DNA from: a virus
Lineage: Duplodnaviria > Caudoviricetes
DNA: 55,451 bases
IMG/VR virus record: IMGVR_UViG_3300030090_003512
Location: 1 to 55,451 of that record
Strand: one strand, 5' to 3'
Below are positions 1,382-55,451 of this stretch, in pieces (position 1 is the stretch's first letter; the number at the start of each line of letters is the position of its first letter). Under the pieces are notes generated by a model that saw nothing but the letters and a program-made list of their open reading frames with translations, ran no database searches and was not told where the DNA came from. Both the position numbers and the translations under genes were made by a program.

Positions 1382-1413
1382 GTTGCAATTAAAGTTTGTA
1401 ACACATATATTTG
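1382..1413 (+). promoter_or_regulatory. Bacteroidota sigma70-type promoter (-33 GTTG, 20-nt spacer, -7 TATATTTG) for the replication block
   Basis: Matches the TTTG-N19-21-TAnnTTTG consensus; intergenic, 8 nt upstream of ATG 1422. Confidence 0.75.
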
Positions 1414-2433: not shown

Positions 2434-2450
2434 TGCGGCCTTGTGCCGCA
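2434..2450 (+). other. GC-rich hairpin TGCGGC-CTTGT-GCCGCA immediately 5' of the tRNA-like element
   Basis: Perfect 6-bp stem without a U tract; possible processing or stability element. Confidence 0.55.
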
Positions 2451-2453
2451 CAC

Positions 2454-2528
2454 CTCCTGCTACCCACTGGGATGGGCTCGTGTTTAATTGGTTTTCCGAG
2501 AGTGTAGGTTCGAATCCTACGCAGGAGT
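2454..2528 (+). ncRNA. tRNA-like RNA with a 16-nt loop in place of the anticodon loop
   Basis: Acceptor CTCCTGC/GCAGGAG; D-like stem CCCA/TGGG; stem CTCG/CGAG closing TGTTTAATTGGTTTTC; canonical T-arm GTAGG-TTCGAAT-CCTAC; no encoded CCA. Confidence 0.8.
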
Positions 2529-2555
2529 CTAATTTTTAATTTAATAAAATATATC

Positions 2556-3125
2556 ATGGTAGATAAACTAAGCCTTATTCAAGGCAACCTCAAAGCTCCG
2601 AAAGGGCAAATGAACAAGTTCGGTGGATACAAATACAGATCTGCTGAAGACATTTTAGAATCGGTAAAACCTTTACTATCAGAACATGGTCTGATCCTAA
2701 CATTGTCAGACGAAATGGTAATGGTTGGTGACAGAGTTTACGTCAAGGCTACAGCTAGGCTTACTGACGGTCAGTCTGAGGTTCAAACAACAGCATTCGC
2801 TAGAGAAGAGGAAAGTAAAAAAGGTATGGACGGTAGCCAGGTAACGGGAGCGTCGTCTAGTTATGCAAGAAAGTATGCACTTAACGGACTGTTTTGTATT
2901 GATGATACAAAAGACAGTGACGCTACAAACACAGGCGCTGGTACTCCAGCTAAAAAGAAAGCTCCTGCAAAGAGTATTTACGAAAAGAGCTTAGCTCACA
3001 TAAACAATTCTAAAGACAAGGCGTCTGCAGTAAAGCTTATACTAGGTAAGTATGAATCTGAGCTTACAAAAGATCAAGTTAAAAAGTTAAAGGCGTTAGG
3101 AAATCTTGCTGAAGTAGTTAAGTAA
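2556..3125 (+). CDS. erf: ERF-family ssDNA annealing protein
   Basis: NKFGGYKYRSAEDIL and QVTGASSSYARKYALNGLFCIDD signatures. Confidence 0.9.
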   Translation: MVDKLSLIQGNLKAPKGQMNKFGGYKYRSAEDILESVKPLLSEHGLILTLSDEMVMVGDRVYVKATARLTDGQSEVQTTAFAREEESKKGMDGSQVTGASSSYARKYALNGLFCIDDTKDSDATNTGAGTPAKKKAPAKSIYEKSLAHINNSKDKASAVKLILGKYESELTKDQVKKLKALGNLAEVVK

Positions 3126-4486: not shown

Positions 4487-6257
4487 TCTATACAGCAAAG
4501 ACTCTCCTAACTATATTTCTTTAGAGCAATGCTTAGAAAGAGTAAAGTCTGGTAAGCAAAAAGATGCTATAGAAAAAATAAGAGGGGGAGACAAATCTTT
4601 AAAGTCAAAGCTGCCTGTTGTTTTATTTAGTGGGAAGTTCAATGAACGCAAGGACTCTTCGCTGATAAAACACAGTGGCTACATTGTCCTGGACTTCGAT
4701 CACATTGATGTAGACAACAGCAAAGCTGTGCTTGCTCTAGATCCTTTTGTCAAAGCCTGCTGGGTTAGCCCTTCTGGTGACGGGTTAAAAGCTGTTGTAA
4801 AGGTTACAAACTCAGAGAATCATAGAGATCATTTCAGAGCTCTTGTAGAATACTTTGATAACAAGTATAATCTAGAGGTTGATAGCACAGGTATCAATGA
4901 AAGTAGGGCATGCTTTGAAAGCTATGATCCTGACGCTGTTATCAAGATAGAGTCAGAGCCTTTTGGGAAGATGCTTTTTGAAGATATCCCTAAGACTCAA
5001 GTAGCTGAGGTAAAGGAAATATCTACAGACTACACTAAGCTACACCTTGCAGCTAGGATGATACGCAACGCTCCTGACGGAGAAAAGCACAACGTACTTC
5101 TGAAAGCTTCTATACTTATGGGTGGGTACATATCTGTGGGTAGGGTAGATGAGCTTGAAGCATATCGTGTTTTAGAGCGTGAGATAGAGCTCCGTGAAGT
5201 TGACGATATGTACGTCGCTAGGAATACTATTCGTGACGGTATAGAGCGTGGCAAGATGGCGCCTATACATGAAACGATAGAGGCAGAAGAGGAAGCGCAA
5301 AGAGAGTTACTACTATCAGACGGCGACATGTCGTTTATGAGTTCCGATGTAGAAGATCTAGACTGGATTATTAGATACAAAAACGGAGAAATAGAGAAGG
5401 GGTGTGGTACAGGCAATGTCCTGTTTGATAAAAACTTTATCTACAAAAAAGAGTTTGTTATGATCTCAGGTCATAGCTCTGTAGGTAAAACTACCTTTAT
5501 GCTGTACATGATGGTTACTATAGCAGTAAACCATAGTTGGGTATGGGTTATTTATTCCTCTGAAAACAAAACTGCTAACGTCAAGATCAAACTTATGCAG
5601 TTTGCTTGTGGCAAGTCTCTAGACGAAATGACTGAGGGGGAGGTAAGGTACATGATGAAGTGGGTGTCAAAGCATTTTATCCTTATAGACAATACTAAAA
5701 TGCTTAGCTACGCAGACCTACTTGTTTATACTGAAAAGATAACTAGGCACAGGAAGATAGATGGATTACTAATAGATCCATACAATTCGCTCAAGGTTGC
5801 TCTTACATCGAACAAGTCAGGATCTGCCTTCGAGTACCACTACGAAGCCGCTGGTGCGTTCCTTACATTTTGTAATAGGTTAGACATAGCTGTATGGGTA
5901 AATGCACACTCAATTACATCAGCTCAAAGGCAAAAAGGTGACGACGGTCAACCTGTTGCACCTCTAGCCCCTGACACAGAGTACGGTGGTATGTGGGTTA
6001 ATAGAGCCGACTGCTTCTTAACAATACACAGAAAGATACATCATCCAGACGTAGAAAAGCGTAGTAGGACAGAGTTTCATGTACGTAAAGTCAGGGAGCA
6101 AGAAACTGGTGGAGAGCCAACAGCAATAGACGATCCATTCTACTTTGACTTCAATGCAAATCACGCAGGATTTACTATGACAGGCCCCTTCTCATCACTC
6201 TATCAACATATTAACATAGAAGATGTTGATAAACAGCTAGAGTTTGAACACTTTTAA
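4467..6257 (+). CDS. Primase-helicase (BT4734/VirE-N-like primase domain + DnaB-like SF4 helicase)
   Basis: KSKLP, LDFDH, SPSGDGLK and SRACFESYDP motifs; Walker A GHSSVGKT; Walker B LLIDPYN; KVRE. Confidence 0.88.
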   Translation: MLTIYRDLYSKDSPNYISLEQCLERVKSGKQKDAIEKIRGGDKSLKSKLPVVLFSGKFNERKDSSLIKHSGYIVLDFDHIDVDNSKAVLALDPFVKACWVSPSGDGLKAVVKVTNSENHRDHFRALVEYFDNKYNLEVDSTGINESRACFESYDPDAVIKIESEPFGKMLFEDIPKTQVAEVKEISTDYTKLHLAARMIRNAPDGEKHNVLLKASILMGGYISVGRVDELEAYRVLEREIELREVDDMYVARNTIRDGIERGKMAPIHETIEAEEEAQRELLLSDGDMSFMSSDVEDLDWIIRYKNGEIEKGCGTGNVLFDKNFIYKKEFVMISGHSSVGKTTFMLYMMVTIAVNHSWVWVIYSSENKTANVKIKLMQFACGKSLDEMTEGEVRYMMKWVSKHFILIDNTKMLSYADLLVYTEKITRHRKIDGLLIDPYNSLKVALTSNKSGSAFEYHYEAAGAFLTFCNRLDIAVWVNAHSITSAQRQKGDDGQPVAPLAPDTEYGGMWVNRADCFLTIHRKIHHPDVEKRSRTEFHVRKVREQETGGEPTAIDDPFYFDFNANHAGFTMTGPFSSLYQHINIEDVDKQLEFEHF

Positions 6258-6284
6258 CATTTATTTGTTTATATATTCCCATAC

Positions 6285-6743
6285 GTGGGAAAGAAAGTAA
6301 AGAATAGATCTAAGGCTAAAGGCCATAGAAGAGCAGGGAACAAACTTAAAAGCGCTCTTGAGGCATACTGTTATGACAGACTCAAGGATGCTAAACTAAA
6401 GTTTGGATATGAAACAGATGTCTTTTATTTAATGGATGGTTTTAGATACAACGGTATCTACCATAAGATGACAAAGGGTAGGGATGTTATGAGAGATAAC
6501 ACTCAGAAGGCAATACAAGGAATTAAGTACACTCCTGATTTTGTTTCCCACGATCACAAGTTTATCATCGAAACAAAAGGGTACGTGCATGGACAGCACA
6601 CCTTTCCGTTACGGTGGAAACTTTTTCTTAGGTATCTAATTGATAATCAGATGGATGACTACATGTTGTTTATCCCTAAGAATAGAAAACAAGTGGACGC
6701 AACAATCAAAATTATTCAGGATGAACTCAAAGGAACTAAGTAG
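6285..6743 (+). CDS. T7 endonuclease I-like resolvase
   Basis: KSALE...YE...YTPDF...IIETKG. Confidence 0.8.
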   Translation: MGKKVKNRSKAKGHRRAGNKLKSALEAYCYDRLKDAKLKFGYETDVFYLMDGFRYNGIYHKMTKGRDVMRDNTQKAIQGIKYTPDFVSHDHKFIIETKGYVHGQHTFPLRWKLFLRYLIDNQMDDYMLFIPKNRKQVDATIKIIQDELKGTK

Positions 6744-6945
6744 ATTGTACTTCGTCACCTGCGATGAGATACAATCGATAACGACACAGCTGTACGAAGA
6801 TCTACACAAAGACAATGGAGAGCCAATAAACAACTGGGAAACCGTTATAGATCTAGCGCTAGACTACAGAAAGGGAGTGCTAGCAGAAATAGAGGGTATA
6901 CGAACAGCATGTGAGGAATACAACGAAAATAAAGTAAAGCTGTAG
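6721..6945 (+). CDS. Hypothetical protein (likely start ATG 6721)
   Basis: 3' part of track ORF 6640..6945; the short-overlap start is more plausible. Confidence 0.6.
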   Translation: MNSKELSRLYFVTCDEIQSITTQLYEDLHKDNGEPINNWETVIDLALDYRKGVLAEIEGIRTACEEYNENKVKL

Positions 6946-6946
6946 G

Positions 6947-7390
6947 ATGTCAGCTCGAAAGCCTTTCGATAAAAAGTTATATGAAAAGTATGACAAGCTA
7001 GCCAGAGTGGCTACAAAAGCTCACCTTAAAAAGAAAGGATTTACTGCTGTAGATCATCACGATAAGTACGCACAGGATCTTATAGCTTCTAAAACAGATG
7101 AGTGGGGAGTTAACTATAGCGATCCCTTTTGTGTAGAGTGCGAAGTAAAAATAGTGTGGTCTGGCGCAAACTTCCCTTACGATACAGTACAATTACCGCA
7201 ACGCAAAAAAAAGTTTTTTAAAGAGCTTACTTTGTTTTACATTTGGAACAAACAATTAACGCATGCCGTTATGTTCTGGAGTCAAAAGGTAAAGCACCTA
7301 AAACCTGTAGAAGTAAAAAACAAATACGTAGGAAGGGGTGAGTACTTCTATCAAATACCTTTAGATCTTACGACAATTATAAAAAGATAA
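6947..7390 (+). CDS. PD-(D/E)xK-type nuclease-like protein
   Basis: QDLIA...VECEVK motif. Confidence 0.6.
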   Translation: MSARKPFDKKLYEKYDKLARVATKAHLKKKGFTAVDHHDKYAQDLIASKTDEWGVNYSDPFCVECEVKIVWSGANFPYDTVQLPQRKKKFFKELTLFYIWNKQLTHAVMFWSQKVKHLKPVEVKNKYVGRGEYFYQIPLDLTTIIKR

Positions 7391-7894: not shown

Positions 7895-8358
7895 AGTACT
7901 ATATTTTCTTTCACCTCTTTGTAGCACGTATCTCCATCATTGTCTTTGTATGCTTCGAGGATTCTGTTTCTATTGTCTTTGTCTTTTAACGATATGTGTA
8001 TCCACGAGAAGTCAAACTCGTTAATCATCTGATCAAACTCAACTCCGTTTTGTACAATGTAATCGTATATAACTTGGTTTTTCATAACGCCTTTGTCCCA
8101 GAACTGGATGTCTACAGCTTGGCCTTTGCAGTGCTGCGACTTTGTACTACCTCCGATAGAGCGATTTAATTTAGGTGATCTGTATCCGCTAGTTACACGG
8201 ATAGGACCTAACTGATCACGCATAGGCTGTAGTATCTCTGTTACAATACGTTGTAGATTTTTCTTATGAGCTTCTGTAGGCTCATTTTTTATACCCTTTC
8301 TTTTTGCTGTACTACTGCGTGTAAGCTCAGAAAGAGTAAAGTTTTTGCTTAGTCTCAT
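7891..8358 (-). CDS. Endolysin, peptidase M15 family
   Basis: LSKNFTLSE, SGYRS, SQHCKGQAVD and WIHIS zinc-peptidase motifs. Confidence 0.9.
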   Translation of the reverse strand: MRLSKNFTLSELTRSSTAKRKGIKNEPTEAHKKNLQRIVTEILQPMRDQLGPIRVTSGYRSPKLNRSIGGSTKSQHCKGQAVDIQFWDKGVMKNQVIYDYIVQNGVEFDQMINEFDFSWIHISLKDKDNRNRILEAYKDNDGDTCYKEVKENIVL

Positions 8359-11300
8359 TCTACTGTGTTTATATCCAACTCTATCAGCACGTTGTTAAAC
8401 GTTGCTTCAGAGTTTAAAGCGATGTAATATAGTAAGAAATTGTTATACCTTTTGAAGTCATCAGGATTCATCTCACCTTCCTTACCTCTGATAACAGCCG
8501 CTATTTCTTTTGGGGAGCGTCTAGATATTCTGCGCACCTCTGCAGAATATTTCTTGTACTCTTGAGGGAACATCATCTCCGTTACCTTGTCTCCTACAGC
8601 TCCCTTTAACGCTGACTTAAATTTAGCCTGGCTTAACCCTCTAGCTAAAGTCACTGGATCTTCTTCAGCTTGCTTCTGTAGTATGCTAAGCAACCTTCCT
8701 GGTCCTGCACTTTCTGCACCCTCAATGGTAGCTTTGATTTCAGGATCGTTACCTATCGCAATCAATATGGTTTCAAATGCTGCAAGCTGTTCTTCTGAAG
8801 AAAGCGCCCTGTCTTTTGGCATATCATCTAATGCTTTAGCTACGTAGTCAAGCTCCTTAACTCCTACACCTGCCAGGTTAGCAAAAGATAAAAGCGTTCT
8901 TAATGTGTTACTCAACATAAAGTCTGCTCGATCTTCTGGTCTAATAAACCTTTCACGCCCTGATCCTGTGGTATATGAAGTACCACCGTTAAGTGTGGGC
9001 TCAAGCATCTTTTCTAAGTCCATTGCAAACTTACCACCAGGTCCAAGCACACTAAGCGCTGTTAGTATAGCGTTTTGTACTGGCCCTTTTTTGTCTGTTA
9101 CTCCTGATCCGTAAGTTGTTACAGCATCACCGTATTGTTTAAACAATTCAAAAGCATCTTTATCTTCAAGCCCTGGAGCATCATAGTCCGAAGCGTTAAA
9201 GAATAAGTAGTAGTTAAAAAAGTCTTTTACTTTGTTATCAATAGCAGGTGTAGACGGAAGTGGAATTGCGTCTAATACTGTTTGTACAGCAGACTCCCTT
9301 ATTGTTTTAGTATCTGTAAGTATTTCATCTAAGTTCGATTCATCGTCGTCATCTCCGAAGCCTTTAACAAACTCAGATATTAGTGCGGTCATAACTCTTG
9401 AAATGTAAGCAAACACAAACAAAGAAGCTGTTGTTCCTGCTAATCCTCTCAACCCATCTTTTCTAGCTTGAGCATTAGAAGGATCAATAATACGACCAAC
9501 ATCACCAGTAATCGATCTCTTTGTATTGATAGCAAAGCTTTGGAATGGGAGCATAGTCTGCACTAAAAATCTTACAAACGCACTTTTATTTTTATAAACA
9601 TTCGCAGCAAGTCTAGAGCTAGAGACGTTTTGGTCTTTGCTAACTATGTTTTCTGCATAAGCTATAGCCTCCATGTTTGGATTAGCAGCCTCTTGCTCCC
9701 AATTGATTTCTGAGATATCATTAACTACACCCTCAGATAATAAGAAGTCTGCATAGAAAGCATAGAAAGAACTTATAGCAGCTACTTTGTCTGTCGTTGT
9801 TAGCGTCCACATAGACTTGTCTTGCAGCCAGTCACGAGTTTTATCAAGTCGACTCTTATCAAATTCTACCCTACCTGTAAACGGATCTATGTTACCAGCC
9901 TTGTAGTCTCTTAAGAATAAAGTGGTGTGACGCAATAGCTCATATCTTCCGTCGTTAATTTTTACTTTAGGATCGCTAAGAACTTTGAGTTTCCCATCTC
10001 TATCCTTACCTACAAAAGTCAGAGCCAGCATCTCCCCAAAAGTTCTTATAAGGTATGCTTTACCTTGTAGTGTTTTAGTGTTTGCAAAAGCAGATAGCAT
10101 AACAGTAGACTGTTTAAAGAACTGTACAAACACACCACCAAAAGCATTTATTACAGCAGCAACCCTAAACATCTCAAATGGGTTACGTATCGTCTTTCCT
10201 GCTACCTTTATATTTTTTTGGAATATAAACGGAACTTCTGTAGCGTCAGCAACAAGGTAGTTGTCTATCATCTCTGACAGCTTAGCCTTTATGCTTTTAG
10301 GCATAAGGCCTTGCATAGCTTCAGTTTGGAAAGCATACTTCATAGCAAGAACATCCTCAAGCGACATCATAATAAACGAGTTCTGCCTTAGCGTTGATTC
10401 GTTTATCTTCAAGAAGTTTAGTCCTAAAATAGAATCACCACCGACAGCTCTTGCTTCCCTTTCAAATGTAGCGCCAGGAGTCTTTGTGTAATTGCTGTTG
10501 CCTGCACTACTCAGAGCACTTATCAGTTGTCTACGTATCTCCATAACAGAATCTAACTGATCATCAAAGCCTTTTTTCCTAACCTTAAACGGCGTGTAGT
10601 TTTCTAATACCTCTAAAGTTTTTCCTAGATATCTTTCTGTAAAGTTTTCAAAATCTGGGCGCATAGACTCATGCATCTGAGATAAAAACTCTACGATTTC
10701 TACGATGTCTGTTCTTTCGTTTCTAACTTTATCTAACAGCTCTTGCAGGTTATTAGTCTGCCCAAACAAATATTCACGGGCGTCTTTAAACTCTTGTATA
10801 GTTTCTGGATCGTATATATCTGACTGCTCTACCTCGTACTCTTGAATCGTAGAGTCCATAGCGTCACGTAGATTCATAAACCACTCTGCTTCAGATAGAG
10901 CCTCTGGCTTTTGATTAGCCATAGAAAATATCTGTGCTATAGCATTGGATAGATCTGATGTTATTTCCCCACCTTTTTCTGTTATTTCATCGATCTTGTT
11001 TTGTAGGGCAGTGACTCTTTCCATATGAGCCTGCTCATGAAGGTTTACGCTAGACATAACATCTTGGAAGCCTATAGCTACTAATATCTTAGCTACGTCA
11101 ACGTTACTTACTTTAAATACGTTACGTATAAATGAAGGAACGTTATCGGCAAAGCTTCCGTAAGATTTGTTTTTAGATCTAACACCTTTTGCTACAAGAG
11201 CTTTGATATCACTAGCTAAAGATATCTTACCCCTTACTATAGACGCTAAGTATCCAAGACCTACAGTAGAAGAGTTTACTAAGTAGTCATTGATCTTGTA

Positions 11301-14300
11301 CTCCAAAGCAGCTAGATGTCTCATATCGAGCTGCATAAGTCTAGCCTTAAGTTCTGGCACAGAAACGTTTTCTATACTAAACAAACCTAGTATTGTTCTA
11401 AACGACTTGTCCCGCAGCAACTCCTCAAGGTTAGCTATAACTCTTGGTATGATGGCGTCAGATAAAATAAGTTCTTTTTTATCTTCTGCTAACTCAGCGC
11501 TATCCTTAGCTAACTCATCAAGTATAATCTCTAGATCTTCCACGTTGTTTACATCAAGGCCTAGCTTCTTTGCTGTATCCTCAATCTTCTTACGTGTAGG
11601 GCTTAGTCTACTTCTCTGATATTTCTCCAGTAGAGCTGTATATTCTTCTGCAAACGTCGTTGACTTCCCAGCTTTTTTTGCTGCTTCAACAGCTTTTGTT
11701 GCCCTAGCTCTAAAGTTTGCATCCCTCTCTGTTTCTTCTATAGCTTTAAAGTTTGTAGCTATAGCCATCAGAGATTTTACTTCTTTAAGGTTAGACTCTG
11801 TTACAACAAGATTACCCTCTTCGTCTTTGCTAAACCTAGCCCTCTTCATACTGTTGTTGATGTCGTTAACAAAGTCAGAGAACGACTGCATCTGATCAAC
11901 AGGTATAAGCGAAGCATCTATTCCAGCTACAATTCTTGCAAGAGATCTGTATGCCCCAAAATCTTTTTGTCTAGACTTTCTAAGCAAAGTCTTTTGCAAC
12001 TTACGCATACTCTTAACAAGGTTAAGGTGATCGTCCATCGCTTTCCTTGCATCTTGCTTATCGAATATAGTAGCTAGTTTATCGAGGAATGAGTCTATAA
12101 TATCGAGATCGCTTTCCGATAGTTTTTTAGCTGAAGTTCGTGCCATCTGCCCAGCTATAGCGAAGAAGCTCTTTAGCTGTGTAGCACTAAACTTGTTAGA
12201 CGTCTTCCTATCTTTCATACGCTCTTTGATAAGAGCTTGCGCTTTCTTAAAAAATTCTTGCAAACTCTTAGACTTGTCCTTAAGTTCTTGCAATTTCTTA
12301 CGTAGATTTTTAGCCTCTGTAGATAGTTTACCTTGTCTACGTTTAGCCTGTGCAGCTATCTTAGCTGATTCTTTTCTAGCAGCTCTTCTCCCCCTAGCAA
12401 ACTGAACAGCATTTTTATATGTCTTTTCTGCTTGCTCTTTCTTCATACCGCTATCCTGAAGAACTTTAATTATCTCATCCTTCTTCATCTTAAACAAGTT
12501 GACTTGCTTAGATGGTTTAAGAACAAGCTTTTTGTTCTTACCCTTGCCCTCCATAACCAAGGTAAATCCATTCTCTGTAAGCATATCAGCTACAGTTTCT
12601 ACAATCTTCTGTGCGCTTTTACCCTCCTCTGCTGTGTTGTCATTTGATTCAGACTCATTTAAAGACTCTACCTCAGAAGCTATTGCTGGATCAGGTGTCG
12701 GCTCTGCTTGAGCTTCCTCAGCCTCATCATCAGTGGTTACTGTTGGTACATCTTTAAGACCTTCTGTAGCATCAGCTAGCGATTGCATACCTGCAAGACC
12801 AAAGCCACCTTCTATAGTGTTAGTAACAAACTTGATAGCATCAACTACGTTCTTCAACGTAGGGTTTTTAAATTCTGTACCAAACAACTTGGCTACATAA
12901 TTTTTTAGTGACGAGATAAGACCTTGCTTATACTCCGCTGACAAATCACCGTTAGTAATGTCAGCGAGTATTTCCATAACAAGTTCCTGAGCAGCTTGTG
13001 GGTTTTGCTCTACGATTTGTGACAACAACTTTCTAGCAAGCGCATCTGTTACAGCTACCTCTGCTAAAGCTTGTTGCTCTTTAGTAAGATACTCACTAAC
13101 AAAAGCTAAATATCTTTTAGCATTAGGTAAAGCCATAGCAAACTGGCGTGCAAGCTTACGCAACGCTGTTCCTGCACCTTGCTTCTCATCGATCTGCATA
13201 GCAGCAGAGTGGAAAGCTTCGTGGTATGGCGTGTTTGCTTTTAAAGCAGGTAAGAAAAGGTGGACTTGATTGCCGTCTTTTATATGAATACCTCTTGATA
13301 CATCTGCCCCTGTAGCTTTTTCAAAAGCTTTAGCTGTACCATGAATGAAGACCTTACCTCCCTGACCTACAACAGTCTGTATTATTTTCTTTACGTTTTG
13401 TAATCCACGTATAATTTCTTCACGACTAGAAAACTTAGTAGATATAATTTTACCAGCGTTGATAATTCTATCTATAACGCTGTTGGCATTTTCACCAGTA
13501 AGCTCTACTGAATTACCTCTGCTTACTCTTCCGTAATCTGTTATATCTGGATCTACTCTACCTACCTCATCTATAACAGCTTGAGTTTCAGGATCTTCTA
13601 AGTTTTGCTCTAGGAAAGATTGATTCTGTGAGTACTTACCCTCTATATTAAACTTAGCTTCAAAAGCTTGTTTTGTATCTGCTTGTAAAGCTGAAAGCTC
13701 TGCTTCGTACACAGCAACAGCATCCTCGTTACCTTGCTTTCTTGCGTCCTCTAAATTTTTTCTAGTATCAAAAGCTTTCCTTCTATTTTTTCTGATACGA
13801 GTATTTAACCCACTTATCTGTGTAAGATCCTCATCAGTAATATTTGCTAAAAAAGCCATGTCTCTAGCCGAAACCCTCCACATTTGATCTTGCGTCTCAA
13901 GCATCTCTTGCTTTATCTGAGCTTTCTTTTCAGAGTTTGTTTCTTTGGCTAATCTTTTTTGTAGAGCTTCATATTTACTTTCTAAAGCTAGTTGATCTTT
14001 AAAATTAAACTTCGAAGCTATATAAGAGGGTGCTCTTACAATACCCATTTGTATACCTCCTGCTGCAGTACCTATAGCAAAAGCATCAAGGGTTTCAATA
14101 TAGTTATACTTTATATTGGTTTTCTCTATTTCTTTACCCGCTATCTGTGATCTTAAATTAGACGCTACGTCATCAGCTATATCTTCTGTATTTAACCTCG
14201 TTTGTAAACTTGAAATTTCCCTATCTAAAGCTGTACGTTCAGCATAATTAGTAAGGTGCTGACTTGCAAAAGAAACTAACCCCTCCTCTATACCTTCTTC

Positions 14301-16391
14301 AAAAAACTTAAACACTCTATTGCCCGTAGTTTTTTTCCAACCTGTCTGTATGCTTCCTAACAACCCCCTCCTCGCTGTCGTCTGCGCTGTTTCTTGAGCA
14401 ATATCTTTTACCCCTATACCAAACATTCTACGTATAGCATTGGCAGAGATAACCTCTTGCTTCATAAATATTTTTTCTGACACATACTCAAACCCACCCA
14501 TCAGAGAAGAGTATAAAATCTTTTCTGCCATAGTTAAATTTGGATTGTCTTTCATATCGCTATACGCACTTCCTGTAGTACTTCCAGCAAAACCAACTAA
14601 CGCTACCTCTGGAGCACCTGCAAGCGTCATAACTATTGTTCCAGCAATTTGAGGTACAGCAGCTGCAACGCCATCTAAAAATAATGTAGCGGCTGCACTT
14701 TCATTACGATAAGGTCCAATTTCAAGGTTTCCAAAAATACCTCTTTCTATTTCTTCAAGACTTAAACCTTCTCTTAGTTTTTTGTTTTGATCCATAGCTG
14801 CAGCTAACTCATTCCAAGTAAACATGCCAGGCTCAAACTCCCTTCCGTATATGTCTTTATACCCTCCTTCTGCTAGCACAACCCCACCGCCAATTCTTTT
14901 TCGCAGAAGCACACTTTCAGAAGTTGAGTCAGTAAGCCCTATCATATTAGCCAAATCGATAAACCCATAAAGAATCATACCCCCAGTCGCATATGTGTTT
15001 TTCCAATATGTTTCGTCATCTAACTTCCTCCCAAAGTATTCAGCACTTTCTCTATATCTATTTATTGCAGTATCGCCATTCATAAACACCTCGTCCATAG
15101 ACATTTGCATAACCACATCAAAAATATCGTAAGCTCTTCTCTCTATTCCTAACACTTCATTTGCTTCGTTATATAGCGATATAACAGTAGCCTCTTTTTC
15201 TGCTTCCCTTCTTAACACATCATCTTGTTGAGCTCTAGTTGTAGCTCCAGAAAATTCATCTACAAAAATTGCTATGTGACTTTTAAGCTTACGCTTGTTA
15301 TCCAAAGCTTCTATAACCTCAGATCTAGCTGTGTAATAACCAGCCACTTTATTGTACTCCTCTGTTGTTAACTCTTTTCCAAAAGCACTATAGTACTCAG
15401 ATGCCTTTTCAAAAGTATTTATTTTTTCTGGCATCCTTCCCTGAGCTATACTTAACTCATCTTCATTTGTAGGTATGTAAGAAGTGTTAAATTGATCTAA
15501 GTGTGGCTCATAAAAAAAACTTGCTCCCTCTTCAGTATCTATTGTAGGGACCTCATTCAAAGCATCAACAGTATATGTGCCTATATCAAACGTAGAAGAA
15601 ACAATAGCTGTCTTCCTCATCTCTACATTTAACGTAGAGTTAGGATCTTCTATAAGCAACCCACTATTTTTTATAATAGCTTCAAAGCTATCTGCCGTTG
15701 TACCTGTGTTGATTATATAAGCGTTAGCTCTAAATGTATCATAAATTTCACTACTAAAGCTAGCAATATCACCAGGTCCTACGGGAGTGCCTAACTCTAT
15801 ACCTCTGCTTGTTAACCATTTTTTTGCTAAGTGATAGTTTTCGTAGTCTACATTATTTAAGTCTCCCTCTGTGGCAACAAAACCTTCACCAACGGATTCA
15901 GCAGAAAACTGTTCGGCAATGTCCAACCTAGACTGCTCATGGAATCTATCCTTTTCTTCTGGCCTTAAGCCCCCTGTTCCAGTAAGGTTATTACCGTCTA
16001 TGGGATCTGTTCTACTCCCGAATATACCCTCAAAGAAATCACCCTGTAGTGTCTCTTGTTGTGACGCCAATCGTGACAGTTCGTTCTCCCTTTCTATAGG
16101 TGGCACAGTAGTGTCCGTTGGAACATCTAAACCTCCACCTTCTACACCATATCCTAATAGAGTAGAGTACTCTTCCGATAGCGCTGAATCTTTTTTTTTT
16201 GGGGCTACGCCAGCTAAGAAAATAAAATCTCTTTCGTTACCCTCAAAGCCAGCTTGTCTAACTAGATTGAACGTGCTGTCAAAATATGTCTGCTGTTGCA
16301 TCATATCAAACAGTTGCTCTTGAGTACCTACGTATCCAGCGTCCCTTACAATATTAAATATATTGTTTTGATATTCTGTAAATCCGTTCAT
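8355..16391 (-). CDS. Giant internal virion/ejection protein (2678 aa) with a zincin-like HExxH domain
   Basis: Largely helical; last of three genes after the nozzle; PYHEAFH at 13209..13223. Confidence 0.75.
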   Translation of the reverse strand: MNGFTEYQNNIFNIVRDAGYVGTQEQLFDMMQQQTYFDSTFNLVRQAGFEGNERDFIFLAGVAPKKKDSALSEEYSTLLGYGVEGGGLDVPTDTTVPPIERENELSRLASQQETLQGDFFEGIFGSRTDPIDGNNLTGTGGLRPEEKDRFHEQSRLDIAEQFSAESVGEGFVATEGDLNNVDYENYHLAKKWLTSRGIELGTPVGPGDIASFSSEIYDTFRANAYIINTGTTADSFEAIIKNSGLLIEDPNSTLNVEMRKTAIVSSTFDIGTYTVDALNEVPTIDTEEGASFFYEPHLDQFNTSYIPTNEDELSIAQGRMPEKINTFEKASEYYSAFGKELTTEEYNKVAGYYTARSEVIEALDNKRKLKSHIAIFVDEFSGATTRAQQDDVLRREAEKEATVISLYNEANEVLGIERRAYDIFDVVMQMSMDEVFMNGDTAINRYRESAEYFGRKLDDETYWKNTYATGGMILYGFIDLANMIGLTDSTSESVLLRKRIGGGVVLAEGGYKDIYGREFEPGMFTWNELAAAMDQNKKLREGLSLEEIERGIFGNLEIGPYRNESAAATLFLDGVAAAVPQIAGTIVMTLAGAPEVALVGFAGSTTGSAYSDMKDNPNLTMAEKILYSSLMGGFEYVSEKIFMKQEVISANAIRRMFGIGVKDIAQETAQTTARRGLLGSIQTGWKKTTGNRVFKFFEEGIEEGLVSFASQHLTNYAERTALDREISSLQTRLNTEDIADDVASNLRSQIAGKEIEKTNIKYNYIETLDAFAIGTAAGGIQMGIVRAPSYIASKFNFKDQLALESKYEALQKRLAKETNSEKKAQIKQEMLETQDQMWRVSARDMAFLANITDEDLTQISGLNTRIRKNRRKAFDTRKNLEDARKQGNEDAVAVYEAELSALQADTKQAFEAKFNIEGKYSQNQSFLEQNLEDPETQAVIDEVGRVDPDITDYGRVSRGNSVELTGENANSVIDRIINAGKIISTKFSSREEIIRGLQNVKKIIQTVVGQGGKVFIHGTAKAFEKATGADVSRGIHIKDGNQVHLFLPALKANTPYHEAFHSAAMQIDEKQGAGTALRKLARQFAMALPNAKRYLAFVSEYLTKEQQALAEVAVTDALARKLLSQIVEQNPQAAQELVMEILADITNGDLSAEYKQGLISSLKNYVAKLFGTEFKNPTLKNVVDAIKFVTNTIEGGFGLAGMQSLADATEGLKDVPTVTTDDEAEEAQAEPTPDPAIASEVESLNESESNDNTAEEGKSAQKIVETVADMLTENGFTLVMEGKGKNKKLVLKPSKQVNLFKMKKDEIIKVLQDSGMKKEQAEKTYKNAVQFARGRRAARKESAKIAAQAKRRQGKLSTEAKNLRKKLQELKDKSKSLQEFFKKAQALIKERMKDRKTSNKFSATQLKSFFAIAGQMARTSAKKLSESDLDIIDSFLDKLATIFDKQDARKAMDDHLNLVKSMRKLQKTLLRKSRQKDFGAYRSLARIVAGIDASLIPVDQMQSFSDFVNDINNSMKRARFSKDEEGNLVVTESNLKEVKSLMAIATNFKAIEETERDANFRARATKAVEAAKKAGKSTTFAEEYTALLEKYQRSRLSPTRKKIEDTAKKLGLDVNNVEDLEIILDELAKDSAELAEDKKELILSDAIIPRVIANLEELLRDKSFRTILGLFSIENVSVPELKARLMQLDMRHLAALEYKINDYLVNSSTVGLGYLASIVRGKISLASDIKALVAKGVRSKNKSYGSFADNVPSFIRNVFKVSNVDVAKILVAIGFQDVMSSVNLHEQAHMERVTALQNKIDEITEKGGEITSDLSNAIAQIFSMANQKPEALSEAEWFMNLRDAMDSTIQEYEVEQSDIYDPETIQEFKDAREYLFGQTNNLQELLDKVRNERTDIVEIVEFLSQMHESMRPDFENFTERYLGKTLEVLENYTPFKVRKKGFDDQLDSVMEIRRQLISALSSAGNSNYTKTPGATFEREARAVGGDSILGLNFLKINESTLRQNSFIMMSLEDVLAMKYAFQTEAMQGLMPKSIKAKLSEMIDNYLVADATEVPFIFQKNIKVAGKTIRNPFEMFRVAAVINAFGGVFVQFFKQSTVMLSAFANTKTLQGKAYLIRTFGEMLALTFVGKDRDGKLKVLSDPKVKINDGRYELLRHTTLFLRDYKAGNIDPFTGRVEFDKSRLDKTRDWLQDKSMWTLTTTDKVAAISSFYAFYADFLLSEGVVNDISEINWEQEAANPNMEAIAYAENIVSKDQNVSSSRLAANVYKNKSAFVRFLVQTMLPFQSFAINTKRSITGDVGRIIDPSNAQARKDGLRGLAGTTASLFVFAYISRVMTALISEFVKGFGDDDDESNLDEILTDTKTIRESAVQTVLDAIPLPSTPAIDNKVKDFFNYYLFFNASDYDAPGLEDKDAFELFKQYGDAVTTYGSGVTDKKGPVQNAILTALSVLGPGGKFAMDLEKMLEPTLNGGTSYTTGSGRERFIRPEDRADFMLSNTLRTLLSFANLAGVGVKELDYVAKALDDMPKDRALSSEEQLAAFETILIAIGNDPEIKATIEGAESAGPGRLLSILQKQAEEDPVTLARGLSQAKFKSALKGAVGDKVTEMMFPQEYKKYSAEVRRISRRSPKEIAAVIRGKEGEMNPDDFKRYNNFLLYYIALNSEATFNNVLIELDINTVE

Positions 16392-33317: not shown

Positions 33318-33599
33318 TTACAGGTTATCTATCTTTTCTTCGATACGTTTCATATCGTCTTTAATTTCTGTTACATCTTCTTGTGTTGTCATAATAGTCT
33401 GACGGATCAGCTGATCTTTCATATCAAACTCCATACGAGTAACTTCTGCAGGTAATGGCTCAGGCAGCTCTTTAGCTAAAGCTATGTCTGCTTGAAGAGC
33501 AAACCACATCCCAATAAGGGCTGCTAGCCCTGCTACGCCCATTCCTATTGTCTTTAGATCTAGTGTTACTTTAGTATCTTCTCCAATTTGTTTTGCCAT
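33318..33599 (-). CDS. Single-TM protein with a C-terminal coiled coil
   Basis: TIGMGVAGLAALIGMWFAL TM segment; heptad-rich tail. Confidence 0.7.
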   Translation of the reverse strand: MAKQIGEDTKVTLDLKTIGMGVAGLAALIGMWFALQADIALAKELPEPLPAEVTRMEFDMKDQLIRQTIMTTQEDVTEIKDDMKRIEEKIDNL

Positions 33600-34696
33600 T
33601 ATAGTATCACATAATTTAGTCCTACAGTAAAGTCATGCCATTCTCTATTCCAATACTTATTGTATTTGCCTTCTAAGAAAACACCAAGACTTTTATTTAA
33701 TCTCCATCCAAAGATAAGGCCTGCGCCGTAATCGATCCATTGAGCCCCGTCAGTGGTTTCAAAGTAAGAGTACTCACCCTCTGTCTTTAAATGGTACGGC
33801 ATAACACTAACCCAAGAGTGCAGCCAGTAATCTTTTGTAAAGTGGTAATAGTCATAACCTAAAACAACAGAATAGTTCCATTGATTGGGTAGCTCGCTAC
33901 GCTTACGATCTACATAGTCATCTATCACTTGAGGGATAACAACCTGCTCCCATACATCAGAACTATTTGCAATAAGCTCTCCGTTAGGAGTAAAGTATTC
34001 TTCTGCCTGTACGTCAACAGTATATCCCTCTTGTATAGCTAAACTTGTGTAGTGTAAATTCCCGTTAGGTAGTACCCACTCGTCTAAGGGATTGTAACCA
34101 TATGGCTCTGATATACGCTGAGCTATACCTACATTAAAACTAAACTTACTATTGACGTTTAAACGTAAACGTTGAGAACCCTCAAAGTATTCGACGTCAG
34201 CAAAACCATCTTGCAGATACTCAGCTTTAGCGATCCAGTTTTTTGCAACGTAACGAAGGAAGTAATCTTGATCTAAAAAGTTTCTACCCTGCTGTCTTCG
34301 CCAGTCAGCTTCAAACAAAAACTCAAAGCCTTTTACCTTACCGATGTTTGCAGCATCACTATACGATCTTTCAGTACCGTTGTAAAAAGTATTTGCTCTA
34401 TTCTCATATCCAAACCTAGCAATCTTTCTTACACCCAAAGTCATGGAGTAATCAAAAGGTGTTTCTACAACATCGGTTTGTAAGCCATTTGTTACAGAGT
34501 AGATATTGTCGTCAGCAACAGAATTACCACCGCTAACAGCGGCATAAAAGGTAGCGAACTTAAATGTCTTTTTTAACGTCTGTCCTTTTGCATCTAAAGA
34601 CGCACCCAAAATAAACACGACAAGCATTATTGTCATGTAAAGAAAAAACTGTAATCTTTTGTACTTACGGCAGTTATTTAATTGGTCTGGTGACAT
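33599..34696 (-). CDS. Predicted outer-membrane beta-barrel protein
   Basis: Signal peptide ...LDAKG/Q; alternating aromatic strands; C-terminal GVFLEGKY...DFTVGLNYVIL. Confidence 0.7.
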   Translation of the reverse strand: MSPDQLNNCRKYKRLQFFLYMTIMLVVFILGASLDAKGQTLKKTFKFATFYAAVSGGNSVADDNIYSVTNGLQTDVVETPFDYSMTLGVRKIARFGYENRANTFYNGTERSYSDAANIGKVKGFEFLFEADWRRQQGRNFLDQDYFLRYVAKNWIAKAEYLQDGFADVEYFEGSQRLRLNVNSKFSFNVGIAQRISEPYGYNPLDEWVLPNGNLHYTSLAIQEGYTVDVQAEEYFTPNGELIANSSDVWEQVVIPQVIDDYVDRKRSELPNQWNYSVVLGYDYYHFTKDYWLHSWVSVMPYHLKTEGEYSYFETTDGAQWIDYGAGLIFGWRLNKSLGVFLEGKYNKYWNREWHDFTVGLNYVIL

Positions 34697-53142: not shown

Positions 53143-53247
53143 ATGAACGAAAACCAATTACCAAACGTGCAAGATTTAGCACTACAACAGGCTCTCCTAG
53201 ATATGGGAGCGGAGTTCGACCTAATTAATTTCGATAATGTACAATAA
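53143..53247 (+). CDS. Small early peptide (34 aa)
   Basis: Read manually: MNENQLPNVQDLALQQALLDMGAEFDLINFDNVQ. Confidence 0.5.
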   Translation: MNENQLPNVQDLALQQALLDMGAEFDLINFDNVQ

Positions 53248-53321
53248 TGCCGACAACCCAAGCGTTCTAGAAATGACGCTACTATTTATAATCATGTTAC
53301 TATGCTGTTGTGTATGGTAAC

Positions 53322-53336
53322 GAAAACCAATAAGAG
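53322..53336 (+). promoter_or_regulatory. Repeated early leader motif (G)AAAACCAATAAGAG-ATG; variants at 53547, 53713, 54388, 55283
   Basis: Direct inspection; immediately 5' of start codons. Confidence 0.85.
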
Positions 53337-53555
53337 ATGAAAGTAATAAATAACAACCTAAGCTTAAGAAACTTTGACGCTTGGTCAGGGGCAAAGGACA
53401 CCAAGCAGTTAATTATTGAGAACGACAAAGAATCAGACTTCGAGTTTTTGATGGAAGATCTATACCCTGACGGCATGACAGAAACTCAGCTAAACGATAT
53501 CCTATGGTTTGAAACCGATTGGATATGTGAAACACTTGGAATTGATAACCAATAA
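53337..53555 (+). CDS. Acidic early protein
   Basis: ORF track; motif leader. Confidence 0.75.
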   Translation: MKVINNNLSLRNFDAWSGAKDTKQLIIENDKESDFEFLMEDLYPDGMTETQLNDILWFETDWICETLGIDNQ

Positions 53556-53567
53556 AATTAATAAGAG

Positions 53568-53714
53568 ATGAAAGACGTAAGCAAAAAAGACGTATTACTA
53601 ATTATCAATACATACCAAAACCATATCAATGATTTTGTAAACGTATCAGATAAAGATTTAGATGCTATCTACTTAGAGGTAGCAAAGAAGGACTTTGAAA
53701 ACCTATTTTTCTAA
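53568..53714 (+). CDS. Small early protein (48 aa)
   Basis: Read manually; AATAAGAG-ATG leader. Confidence 0.6.
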   Translation: MKDVSKKDVLLIINTYQNHINDFVNVSDKDLDAIYLEVAKKDFENLFF

Positions 53715-53726
53715 AACCAATAAGAG

Positions 53727-53858
53727 ATGAAATATTTAGTATGGGTGGGCGGAACGCCTAACGAATTTGATAACATTCTAGACGCTATGATAGAGCAGAT
53801 AGAATGGGAAAGTAAAGGGTACGATAATGTAATAATTGAAACAGAACGTAAAATATAA
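53727..53858 (+). CDS. Small early protein (43 aa)
   Basis: Read manually: MKYLVWVGG...WESKGYDNVIIE; motif leader. Confidence 0.65.
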   Translation: MKYLVWVGGTPNEFDNILDAMIEQIEWESKGYDNVIIETERKI

Positions 53859-53862
53859 TATT

Positions 53863-54012
53863 ATGAAGAAATTTATTATCATCAGAATCGCTAGACTTAT
53901 TAGAAGAAAGGTGCACGTTGCAAAGAATATGCAACTAAAACACATAAACTATATGTATGACTACAACTATTTTAAGCTACTTAAATCTTACTATAAAGCA
54001 TTAATGTTATGA
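53863..54012 (+). CDS. Small basic early protein (49 aa)
   Basis: Read manually; ATGA overlap with the next gene. Confidence 0.5.
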   Translation: MKKFIIIRIARLIRRKVHVAKNMQLKHINYMYDYNYFKLLKSYYKALML

Positions 54013-54308
54013 GCAAGGAATTATTCAAAACAATTGAAGCACAAGGTCGTTTAATTACTGAACTGCGTGGCGAATTAGAGAATAGGAAAGTGTATGCTGT
54101 CCACGTAATGGACTCACTATTGGACTACTCAGAACAAAAACTATTTACAAACTATTCAGATGCTTTACATGAGTTTCAATGTGCTGTTAATGAAGCAAAA
54201 AGCGACGATAGGATAAAAGAAATCTATACATATGAGGAAGGTGCGCTATACTATCAAGGCGATGAAAGTTCTGTAAAGATATTTATAGAAGAACTTATAA
54301 TAAACTAA
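54009..54308 (+). CDS. Early protein with an N-terminal coiled coil
   Basis: ORF track. Confidence 0.7.
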   Translation: MSKELFKTIEAQGRLITELRGELENRKVYAVHVMDSLLDYSEQKLFTNYSDALHEFQCAVNEAKSDDRIKEIYTYEEGALYYQGDESSVKIFIEELIIN

Positions 54309-54310
54309 AT

Positions 54311-54377
54311 AACAAGGCGAGCACACTGCCTAGACGTAGGAGGAAGGAGAGTGTTAGGGTTTGGAGCCAGCCTTGTT
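54311..54377 (+). ncRNA. Candidate structured RNA (multi-stem junction)
   Basis: AACAAGGC/GCCTTGTT outer stem; ACACT/AGTGT; CCTA-GACG-TAGG; GGTT-TGG-AGCC. Confidence 0.55.
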
Positions 54378-54401
54378 GTTTTTAATTAAAACCAATAAAA
54401 C

Positions 54402-54674: not shown

Positions 54675-55306
54675 AACAATTTACAAAAACACAAAAGCTA
54701 GTGTATGCTATGCTTACAGAAAGCACAGGTATTCACTTCTTAGATAGTGGAGGTACAAAAAATAGAATGTGGCAACGTAATAAACTCAAGACTATCGAGG
54801 ACTTTGATAATGAACAAGAGCAAACTATTGAGAAGTCTGAATGGACTGACAAAGACGGAAAGGTACACACCGAGTACGAGCGCACCGTTTCAGTATTCCA
54901 TTACCTGAGCGAATTAGAATTGGATCACGTGTGTGATAAGTTCAACGAACTCAACACGGACTGCCTAGAATGGGGTGGGGATATATCGTGGGGAGTATGT
55001 CAAGCAGGTGCTGACTTCTTAGAACTAATCAATATGGAAAGCAAACATCAATTCAATACATACAATGGAGATAGCGACCTATCCCAAGTGTTACAGGGTT
55101 CGTGGCTAGAGATGGACGGAGAGCCGTACCTACTCTTACAAATACATGGAGGTGCTGATGTCAGGGGCGGTTATACAGATGCTAAACTATTCAAACCAAG
55201 TGATGATTGGATAATACACCCATACTTACAAGAGTACATAGATAGCAATGAAATTGAGGAAGAATACGAATTATACCATGAAGAAAACCAAACCAAAACA
55301 AAATGA
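54671..55306 (+). CDS. Acidic early protein
   Basis: ORF track; HFLDSGG, QIHGGADVRGGYTD. Confidence 0.8.
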   Translation: MKQFTKTQKLVYAMLTESTGIHFLDSGGTKNRMWQRNKLKTIEDFDNEQEQTIEKSEWTDKDGKVHTEYERTVSVFHYLSELELDHVCDKFNELNTDCLEWGGDISWGVCQAGADFLELINMESKHQFNTYNGDSDLSQVLQGSWLEMDGEPYLLLQIHGGADVRGGYTDAKLFKPSDDWIIHPYLQEYIDSNEIEEEYELYHEENQTKTK

Positions 55307-55451
55307 CAAAGCAAGAACGAATAGAACACATAAGCAACGCACTAAATGAATCTGGTGCATACAAGAAACTTGAATACTTCCTCGTGTATGAAGATGAAAC
55401 TAATGACTTCTTACTTACAGACATGGAGAACTTTGCATACGATCTCGAAGA
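55303..55451 (+). CDS. Early protein running off the window end
   Basis: ATG 55303, open to the end; in frame with 5..367 if circular. Confidence 0.65.
   Translation, partial: MTKQERIEHISNALNESGAYKKLEYFLVYEDETNDFLLTDMENFAYDLE

Follow-up and report, generated by a model that had tools for sequence, protein, structure and literature searches.

What is an element shaped like a transfer RNA (tRNA), with an oversized loop where the anticodon should be, doing just upstream of the erf gene of a phage, and what is to be made of the match between that loop and the leaders of the phage's own early genes? The element lies at positions 2454..2528 of a virus record of 55,451 bases in IMG/VR (IMGVR_UViG_3300030090_003512; Duplodnaviria, Caudoviricetes), the whole of which was analysed and is called the window below. 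A first-pass annotation of this DNA had noticed the element and proposed that its loop of 16 nucleotides (nt) acts as a guide that blocks the translation of early messenger RNAs (mRNAs). We found that the element is a conserved structure with a diverged counterpart in related phages, that its loop core AUUGGUU is complementary to a box repeated before small early open reading frames (ORFs), and that box and element occur together in phages of both element types. That the element is the gene of a small, stable, tRNA-shaped antisense RNA that shuts off the early genes is our best account of these observations, unproven and held tentatively, with somewhat less than even confidence.

Fold and conservation of the element

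The proposed fold, with an acceptor stem of 7 base pairs (bp), a D-like stem, a T arm with the loop TTCGAAT and a CTCG/CGAG stem that closes the 16-nt loop, is borne out by the sequence (Table 1). The 7-bp acceptor stands on a 5-bp T stem whose loop is of the TTCRAnY type, and the parts that make up the tRNA elbow (this T loop and a GG in the D-like loop) are retained; where a canonical anticodon arm has a 5-bp stem and a 7-nt loop, the element has a 4-bp stem and the 16-nt loop. The cloverleaf has an energy of -24.4 kcal/mol, compared with -24.8 kcal/mol for the minimum free energy (MFE) structure, and the pair probabilities are at least 0.97 for the acceptor and T arm and 0.38-0.48 for the D-like stem. 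The z-score for the fold of the whole element is just -1.70, and 11 of 200 shuffles fold equally well. ARAGORN at its default settings calls no tRNA in the window. An Rfam scan at the gathering score gave no match for the element, whose best local match was tRNA-Sec with 14.8 bits against a cut-off of 47.

A further 8 IMG/VR contigs carry the same element (group A), as do 10 metagenome contigs, among which some of the same sequences recur. When variability was counted over the 13 distinct haplotypes of the surrounding kilobase, 5 of the 75 sites of the element were variable, compared with 10 of 31 in the two flanking spacers and with 33 of 97 and 103 of 189 third codon positions in the flanking genes. 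Of the five variable sites, a T-stem pair that changes from G-C to A-U (L012/L117) accounts for two, one on each side, and a third converts the seventh acceptor pair to G-U with pairing kept. The loop varies at 2 of its 16 sites (2482 and 2495, which are loop positions 2 and 15), both outside the core, and its central 12 nt are invariant. About a third of the neutral sites thus vary against 5 of 75 in the element, and this comparison of haplotypes indicates that the element is under purifying selection. The element types are widespread in marine metagenomes, as judged from 20 run rows in 13 studies that contain part of a 3-kb query stretch; all of these are DNA, four of the rows are possibly the source sample itself, and a row that covers little of the stretch says nothing about habitat. 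DNA contigs of four runs show no difference in 2414-2540 among the 40 listed of 117, and these were not counted as evidence.

Is the element simply a tRNA gene in decay, or a copy of a host tRNA at an attachment site, that has no function? With its thresholds lowered to 80%, ARAGORN does read it as a tRNA, as tRNA-Lys(UUU) without introns and as tRNA(UUA) plus a 7-nt insert with introns, and such readings are what a relic might yield; we give them no weight. Because it is under purifying selection and carries compensatory changes the element is not a decaying pseudogene, and no integrase was found among the 30 window ORFs scanned; a functionless relic is disfavoured and seems to us scarcely credible. 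A copy of a host tRNA at a phage attachment site (attP) was sought with the 21-nt 3' half of the element in one genome from each of 185,579 species, where the single non-tRNA match was in a Sphingomonas contig, and this candidate was rejected.

Further searches were made for relatives of the element. Through the neighbouring genes, 80 loci of erf relatives and 28 loci of relatives of the upstream ORF were fetched; when model R1 was applied to the window together with 48 of these loci (49 sources, 383,000 bases), it recovered nothing but the window copy and, at ~20 bits, true tRNAs. A pattern scan of metagenomes gave nothing beyond near-identical group A copies. Matches to a D-arm pattern in L118 and L119 were rejected as unrelated coding sequence. 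A scan for the loop core plus the T loop (at least 118 stretches) yielded 113 sites in the loci that had been fetched, of which 69 are called tRNAs; among the 44 uncalled ones only that in L271 is a member of the family.

L271 is one of 7 further contigs that contain a second, diverged element type, group B (the others are L163, L166, L169, the complete records G003 and G005, and L187, the last being the same contig as L135). The group B phages were reached through relatives of a 211-aa early protein (76-88% identity), and the leader box described below is abundant in them. Group B elements lie at the end of the early region and are 95-105 nt long. Their acceptor GUGAGYG has a matching strand of its own, and the D-side domain is longer and includes a conserved hairpin whose loop is GUGAUG. 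A stem of 3-4 bp closes the 13-nt loop UUUUAUUGGUUAU (13 or 15 nt across copies) directly 5' of the T arm, the T loop is UUCGAUU or UUCGAUC, and most copies have the trailer (T/A)CTAATTTAATTAAC. The MFE fold of the G003 copy is exactly the group B four-way junction. The share of paired cells in group B is 91.8%, and both sides change in 5 of the 21 pairs. Covariation scores 0.222 here, compared with 0.120 +/- 0.021 for shuffles, of which 0 of 500 score as high, and slid registers give at most 0.100.

The comparison between the groups points the same way. Group A and group B2 differ on both sides in 6 of 7 acceptor pairs and 3 of 5 T-stem pairs with pairing kept, counts that were read from the tabulated pairs, MAFFT having failed to align A and B across the 5' acceptor strand. 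The loop-closing stem is CUCG/CGAG in group A and CUAC/GUAG or UGC/GCA in group B (compared by reading the sequences and disregarding the automatic picks, which were G-U-rich alternatives), and despite these differing stems the loop core AUUGGUU and its U-rich flanks are constant between A and B. In both groups the loop occupies the position of the anticodon arm and a separate hairpin fills the D side. The first-pass annotation had staked its idea on homologues that keep an enlarged loop, and they do: the loops are 13-16 nt across both groups, not 7 nt. Its tRNA-like scaffold is likewise real and conserved, with compensatory changes both among the haplotypes and between the groups. With no Rfam match and with the support of covariation, the two element types are a real, undescribed structured RNA family.

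The leader box and its complementarity to the loop

The IMG/VR record is the whole window, its completeness is estimated at 99%, and it is a circular permutation of the genome, since the ORF at 55303-55451 leaves the end of the record and resumes in frame at 2-367. Genes on the + strand run from ~52,825 across the record ends to 7,390 and consist of many small ORFs followed by erf, a PDDEXK exonuclease and a primase/helicase; the remaining genome, terminase, portal and virion proteins included, is on the - strand. The best cultured relatives of the primase/helicase are phages of Maribacter, Cellulophaga, Flavobacterium, Nonlabens and Tenacibaculum, so the host is probably a marine member of the Flavobacteriia.

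The six sense-strand matches to the loop that had been reported among the early genes were all found where they had been placed (Table 1), and the loop is the complement of a genuine early-leader box. There are 40 distinct instances of AACCAAT in the early regions of 8 genomes, with the consensus AAAACCAAT, and the start of the box is often inside the stop codon of the preceding ORF. An ATG follows within 18 nt in 34 of the instances, and in 20 of these the gap between the end of the box and the ATG is 4-5 nt. It is the small early ORFs close to the promoter that bear the box, and not the genes nearer the element or beyond it: 5 of the 8 + strand copies in the window are in 53152-54390 (the box-marked region is 53.3-55.3 kb), 7 of the 9 early-strand copies in G001 are within the 2.5 kb upstream of the element, and there are 8 copies in L117 and 8 exact copies plus variants in L137. 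The six matches are copies of one homologous leader box and are therefore not independent events. On the late mRNAs, 1 sense and 3 antisense copies of the box were found in 45 kb, too few to judge whether it is avoided there.

Box and element are both present in every genome of the clade for which there is enough sequence (the window, G001, L117, L002, L005, L187, G003, G005 and L163). Sites with a box plus an ATG occur at 0.35 per kb in the 21 loci that have the element, compared with 0.08 per kb in the 99 loci that do not.

Is the complementarity between loop and leaders more than the base composition of the two would give? The sequence GAAAACCAAT occurs 4 times in the window against an expectation of 0.08. 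A contiguous complement of the loop of at least 9 nt is present in 6 of 67 start regions, a number that 4 of 5000 composition-preserving shuffles of the loop reach, and in the three orientation controls, with the loop taken forward, reversed, or complemented without reversal, the number is 0 of 67 every time. Six of the 7 mRNA-sense sites of at least 9 nt fall within -20..+6 of a start codon. In the relatives, L117 has 7 start regions with at least 8 nt (3 of 2000 shuffles reach this), L163 has 6 with at least 8 nt (6 of 2000), G001 has 3 with at least 9 nt (27 of 2000), and single leaders carry matches of 12-14 nt (AACCAATTAAAC in L117, L007 and L008). The enrichment of start regions over shuffled controls that the first-pass annotation had set as a test therefore holds, in the window and in part of the relatives, for contiguous complements; it does not hold for duplex energies, as follows.

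Several observations weigh against the idea that the loop is an antisense guide for these leaders. When the loop was run with RNAduplex against the same 67 start regions, with shuffled loops as the control, the mean for + strand genes was -6.39 (shuffles, -6.13 +/- 0.62; 101 of 300 as low) and the mean of the best five was -10.76 (shuffles, -10.21 +/- 0.91; 87 of 300 as low); the energies are ordinary, and any U-rich loop does about as well with such A-rich leaders of the Bacteroidota type. The complement that is common to all is mostly the 7-nt core with A/U flanks. Four genomes or loci of the clade do less well than those above: G005 has 3 start regions with at least 9 nt, which 95 of 2000 shuffles reach; L187 is not significant, with 376, 706 and 628 of 2000 shuffles matching its counts for at least 7, 8 and 9 nt; the start regions of G003 have no match of at least 8 nt; and the L271 locus, which itself holds no box, has no match. 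The loop had been expected to covary with the leader motif of each genome, and no such covariation was found when group A and group B genomes were compared. The loop change U42C (L003, L004, L008 and L012/L117) is unanswered by the leaders, so that the match is shortened, and the G003 loop, AUUUGGUU, has one extra U in the core while 8 G003 leaders retain AACCAAT; the extra U breaks the contiguous match, and pairing there would therefore require a bulge. Leaders of the AACCAA type are also present in four phage loci without the element (L055, L057, L085 and L088), in which analogous loops were sought and none was found. The stem that closes the loop has a pair probability of just 0.22. Finally, models R1 and R2 each fail to detect the other group, so that sequence does not demonstrate a common origin of A and B; the link between them rests on architecture, loop core, trailer, genome position and the kinship of the phages, and not on demonstrable sequence homology.

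A further point against an antisense guide is that AAUUGGU is frequent in the D loop of class II tRNAs, with an example in the tRNA-like unit of L151/L175, and therefore a structural or protein-binding role of the core is possible. However, the loop is in the position of the anticodon arm in both groups, as noted above. Could the element then be a tRNA mimic directed at a protein or at a defence system (a sponge or decoy for a host tRNA-binding enzyme or tRNA-cleaving nuclease, or the ligand of a phage protein), with the core as its recognition site? Retention of the core as a sequence, and not through covariation with targets, would suit such a mimic, and phages do have small RNAs with tRNA features: PAK_P3 sRNA2, with an 11-nt T-loop stretch, and the band C and D RNAs of T4 are described as small, abundant and of unknown function (PMC4933390). 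These lie in or beside tRNA genes, no complement to a leader box is reported for them, and the likeness is one of description only. A decoy for an anticodon nuclease should copy the normal 7-nt loop, whereas the loops here are 13-16 nt long. The element has no linked partner protein: the family of the upstream ORF occurs without it in L097-L116, and the flanking genes differ between the groups. We consider a mimic of this kind distinctly unlikely.

The narrow spacing between box and ATG is what would be expected of a positioned element, and it raises the question of whether the RNA could be an adaptor directed at the ribosome, which pairs with the box at the Shine-Dalgarno position so that its tRNA body recruits or holds the ribosome and activates translation. 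The retained elbow parts are in line with this. Set against it, the genes with the box precede the RNA gene and are closer to the early promoter region, and therefore their translation should begin before there is any of the RNA, and the narrow spacing could stem from the copying of one intercistronic junction; activation by such an adaptor is very improbable in our view. A broader version, in which a trans-acting tRNA-shaped partner docks by its body on the ribosome or on tRNA-handling factors while its 13-16-nt loop reads the box, and the early regulon is switched on or off at initiation in hosts whose ribosomes make no use of Shine-Dalgarno pairing, we regard as quite improbable.

Some other matches and motifs were met in the same regions. 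The complement at 53149..53160 is kept as AAAAACCAATTA in L117/L134/G001, and that at 34677..34686, in a late ORF, is possibly due to chance. Another 10-nt complement, at 14115-14124, falls within a 2678-aa ORF on the - strand (8355-16391), a single ORF that is followed by ORFs of 1173 and 1758 aa. At L117 1838 and 1998 (= L134 6841 and 7001) there are leaders in which AAAACTAAT or AAACTAAT replaces AAAACCAAT; G-U pairs could allow the loop to pair with them. A 15-codon ORF at 53274-53321, just before the first box-bearing leader, encodes a very hydrophobic peptide. The sequence ATTGGTT at window position 207 (in CATCATGGGATTGGTTGATGCC), L117 4023/4282 and L002 1295/1545 is in a ~22-nt coding motif that recurs in small early ORFs, which points to a family of paralogous genes; they are coding sequence and have nothing to do with the loop of the element.

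Table 1. Positions of the element, its parts, the features around it and the complements of its loop in the window
Feature	Position	Strand	Remarks
tRNA-like RNA gene, group A	2454..2528	+	from sequence, fold and conservation
Acceptor stem, perfect 7 bp	2454-2460/2521-2527	+	from sequence
UA linker, then D-like hairpin CCCA-CUGGGA-UGGG (CCCA/TGGG)	hairpin 2463-2476	+	from sequence
Loop-closing stem CTCG/CGAG, 4 bp	2477-2480/2497-2500	+	from sequence
16-nt loop UGUUUAAUUGGUUUUC, anticodon-arm position	2481..2496	+	core AUUGGUU at 2487-2493, complementary to leader box AACCAAU
AGU, then T arm GUAGG-UUCGAAU-CCUAC (T loop TTCGAAT)	T arm 2504-2520	+	from sequence
Discriminator T (U)	2528	+	from sequence
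Promoter-like site TTGCAA-17-TATATT, includes TATATTTG	1383..1413	+	ends ~8 nt before ATG 1422
GC-rich hairpin GCGGC-CTTGT-GCCGC, no U tract after it	2435..2449	+	4 nt upstream of the element
Trailer CTAATTTTTAATTTAAT... (CTAATTTTTAATTT...), leader of erf	2529..2555	+	followed by erf ATG 2556
erf	2556-3125	+	ATG 2556
12-nt complement GAAAACCAATTA	53149..53160	+	codons 3-6 of 34-aa ORF 53143-53247
Box GAAAACCAAT	53322..53331	+	5 nt before ATG 53337 (72-aa ORF)
Box AACCAAT	53547..53553	+	14 nt before ATG 53568 (48-aa ORF)
Box AAAACCAAT	53713..53721	+	5 nt before ATG 53727 (43-aa ORF); overlaps the stop codon of the preceding ORF
Box AAAACCAAT	54388..54396	+	5 nt before ATG 54402 (90-aa ORF)
Box variant GAAAACCAA	55283..55291	+	11 nt before ATG 55303 (ORF continuing at 2-367)
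10-nt complement ACCAATTAAA, mRNA sense	34677..34686	-	begins 10 nt after the first base of the start codon of late ORF 33599-34696

Surroundings of the element and a possible route to an RNA

The separate promoter that had been suggested for the element's operon is plausible. The sequence TATATTTG within the site fits what we take to be the Bacteroidota -7 box, the sequence of the site also precedes the orthologous genes in G001 and L117, and by these signs it could plausibly be a promoter of the Bacteroidota type that heads the operon of the element. It is the promoter-like site nearest to the element, and none was found between the upstream ORF and the element. Genes on the same strand flank the element on both sides with no promoter-like site between, which is the context of a t-element, a non-decoding tRNA-like fold in a polycistron. 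In the hairpin that precedes the element and its linker (2434-2453), 2 of 20 sites are variable (2442 in the hairpin loop and 2451 in the linker), and group B1 elements have another hairpin at the equivalent place. Downstream, the start of the trailer, TCTAATTT, is common to group A and group B elements.

The element adjoins a module boundary in both groups: it stands before erf in group A, and in L187 the group B element directly follows a phage sigma-factor gene (6164-7057; phrog_351, E 3.8e-69). The corresponding ORFs of the window are 1422-1901 and 1898-2125; neither was recognised as a sigma factor, and the second has a weak match to HTH_23 (E 0.0095).

This arrangement suggests a simpler use for the element, as processing punctuation: a signal like a t-element, cut by RNase P and RNase Z, between the regulatory genes and those for recombination and replication, with the hairpin guarding a 3' end and the match of the loop due to chance or to some other cause. 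Conservation and stability are highest in the acceptor and T arm (pair probabilities above), no promoter lies directly upstream, a stable hairpin stands 3-4 nt before the 5' end in both group A and group B1, the element is at a module boundary, and t-elements are an established kind of signal (PMC1920247). What punctuation leaves unexplained is the loop: its core is kept across two element types with differing stems, it has 2 variable sites in 16 when about a third of neutral sites vary, and the core is complementary to the box. We therefore rate punctuation as the sole role of the element as unlikely, and roles in processing and as an antisense RNA are in any case mutually compatible.

The tRNA-shaped antisense RNA would be made and would act as follows: The element would be transcribed as part of a delayed-early or replication operon and not from an adjacent promoter of its own. 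Together, acceptor and T arm make up a canonical tRNA minihelix, and therefore the end-processing enzymes for host tRNAs would be expected to excise the RNA and leave it stable; RNase P would act first and then either RNase Z or exonucleases, together with the CCA-adding enzyme. Once the transcript has been cut at the 5' end of the element, the upstream hairpin could cap the upstream mRNA and shield its 3' end. The single-stranded loop of 13-16 nt would then pair, through its core AUUGGUU, with the box AAAACCAAU that lies 4-5 nt before the AUG, and we infer that such pairing in vivo would cover about -15 to -6 and block binding of the 30S subunit. The RNA would be made only after transcription has reached the replication module, and translation of the immediate-early genes would be shut off from then on. 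An alternative target would be the same genes of a superinfecting relative.

Other tRNA-like units were met during the searches. Those at L153 8341-8430, L195 1381-1493, L206 537-628 and in G007 (L339/L340, two copies) are uncalled by ARAGORN and have a 7-bp acceptor, the T loop GGTTCGAATCC, the trailer TCTAATTT and long central regions that lack ATTGGTT, and their loci show no repeated leader box. In another phage group ARAGORN calls 'tRNA-?(tc)' or '(tt)' genes with a 6-nt anticodon loop (L016 3030-3101, L022 1336-1407 and 3025-3096, L026 2596-2667), which are ~0.9 kb, and in one case ~2.6 kb, upstream of erf. ARAGORN also leaves uncalled a recurrent tRNA-like unit in L227, L229, L233, L258, L261, L282, L300 and L314. 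Most copies adjoin tRNA genes, and most are in contigs from large phages; the unit resembles an anticodon arm at CGTG-CTGATAC-CACG and includes a long arm with GGTTAATTGGTTAC.

Comparison with known systems

No description of the element was found in open-access papers and preprints. The first-pass annotation went further in stating that no described system is like it, and this was too strong: the C4 RNA of phages P1 and P7 is a precedent, and the antisense idea is therefore not without one. C4 is ~77 nt long and is cut by RNase P from a longer transcript at the foot of its terminal stem, and its exposed loops pair with phage mRNA, one of them occluding a ribosome-binding site (PMC5320573, which cites Citron & Schuster 1990 and Hartmann et al. 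1995 on C4). By analogy, C4 is the closest known system to a tRNA-shaped antisense RNA in these phages, being a phage RNA of similar size with a loop directed against a ribosome-binding region, features for which excision and pairing are here predicted. C4 is described as having three stem-loops without a T arm, one operon (icd-ant) as its target and a role in immunity; the element, unlike C4, combines a complete acceptor/T-arm minihelix with a single large loop, and the target proposed for it is a box before many early ORFs. The Rfam C4 model gave no match at E up to 10 for group A or up to 5 for group B.

The proteins RegA (a repressor) and RegB (an endonuclease) of phage T4 shut off early mRNAs at their ribosome-binding sites. 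The likeness lies in a product, made after the first genes, that acts on a short motif in many early initiation regions; RegA and RegB are proteins, not RNA, and their motifs differ from the leader box. In engineered tRNA scaffolds a cargo replaces the anticodon arm, and the cell processes and stabilises the chimera; those constructs are man-made, whereas the arrangement of the element is natural.

Among tRNA-like processing signals, of which mascRNA is another, the closest analogue would be the t-elements of plant mitochondria, tRNA-like signals in longer transcripts at which RNase P and RNase Z define RNA ends (PMC1920247). They share with the element a non-decoding tRNA-like fold within a longer transcript, the processing of the element being predicted. 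These signals are organellar or nuclear, and no guide-like conserved loop is described for them. Mimicry of tRNA by a non-decoding RNA is also known from YrlA, a bacterial Y RNA-like RNA (PMC4201824), and from the tRNA-like domain of transfer-messenger RNA (tmRNA). The Rfam YrlA model gave no match to the element, which has no Ro-binding stem and no tag reading frame, and the tmRNA model matches only the 17-nt T arm of a group B element, with 11.6 bits against a cut-off of 47.

What would the element mean for these phages? Should the antisense idea fail, the two element types would still be an undescribed family of structured RNAs, with covariation support and no match in Rfam. If it is instead the reading in which the tRNA body docks and the loop reads the box that is true, the element would be a natural tRNA-scaffolded guide RNA that acts on translation. 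Provided that the RNA is produced and works as proposed, it would be the first natural tRNA-scaffolded antisense regulator and the first post-transcriptional early-to-middle switch described for phages of Bacteroidota, bacteria that to our knowledge are without Hfq-type chaperones and without initiation led by Shine-Dalgarno sequences. It would account for the box AAAACCAAT repeated at the gene junctions of these marine phages, and its compact natural design would be one on which stable guide RNAs in Bacteroidota could be modelled.

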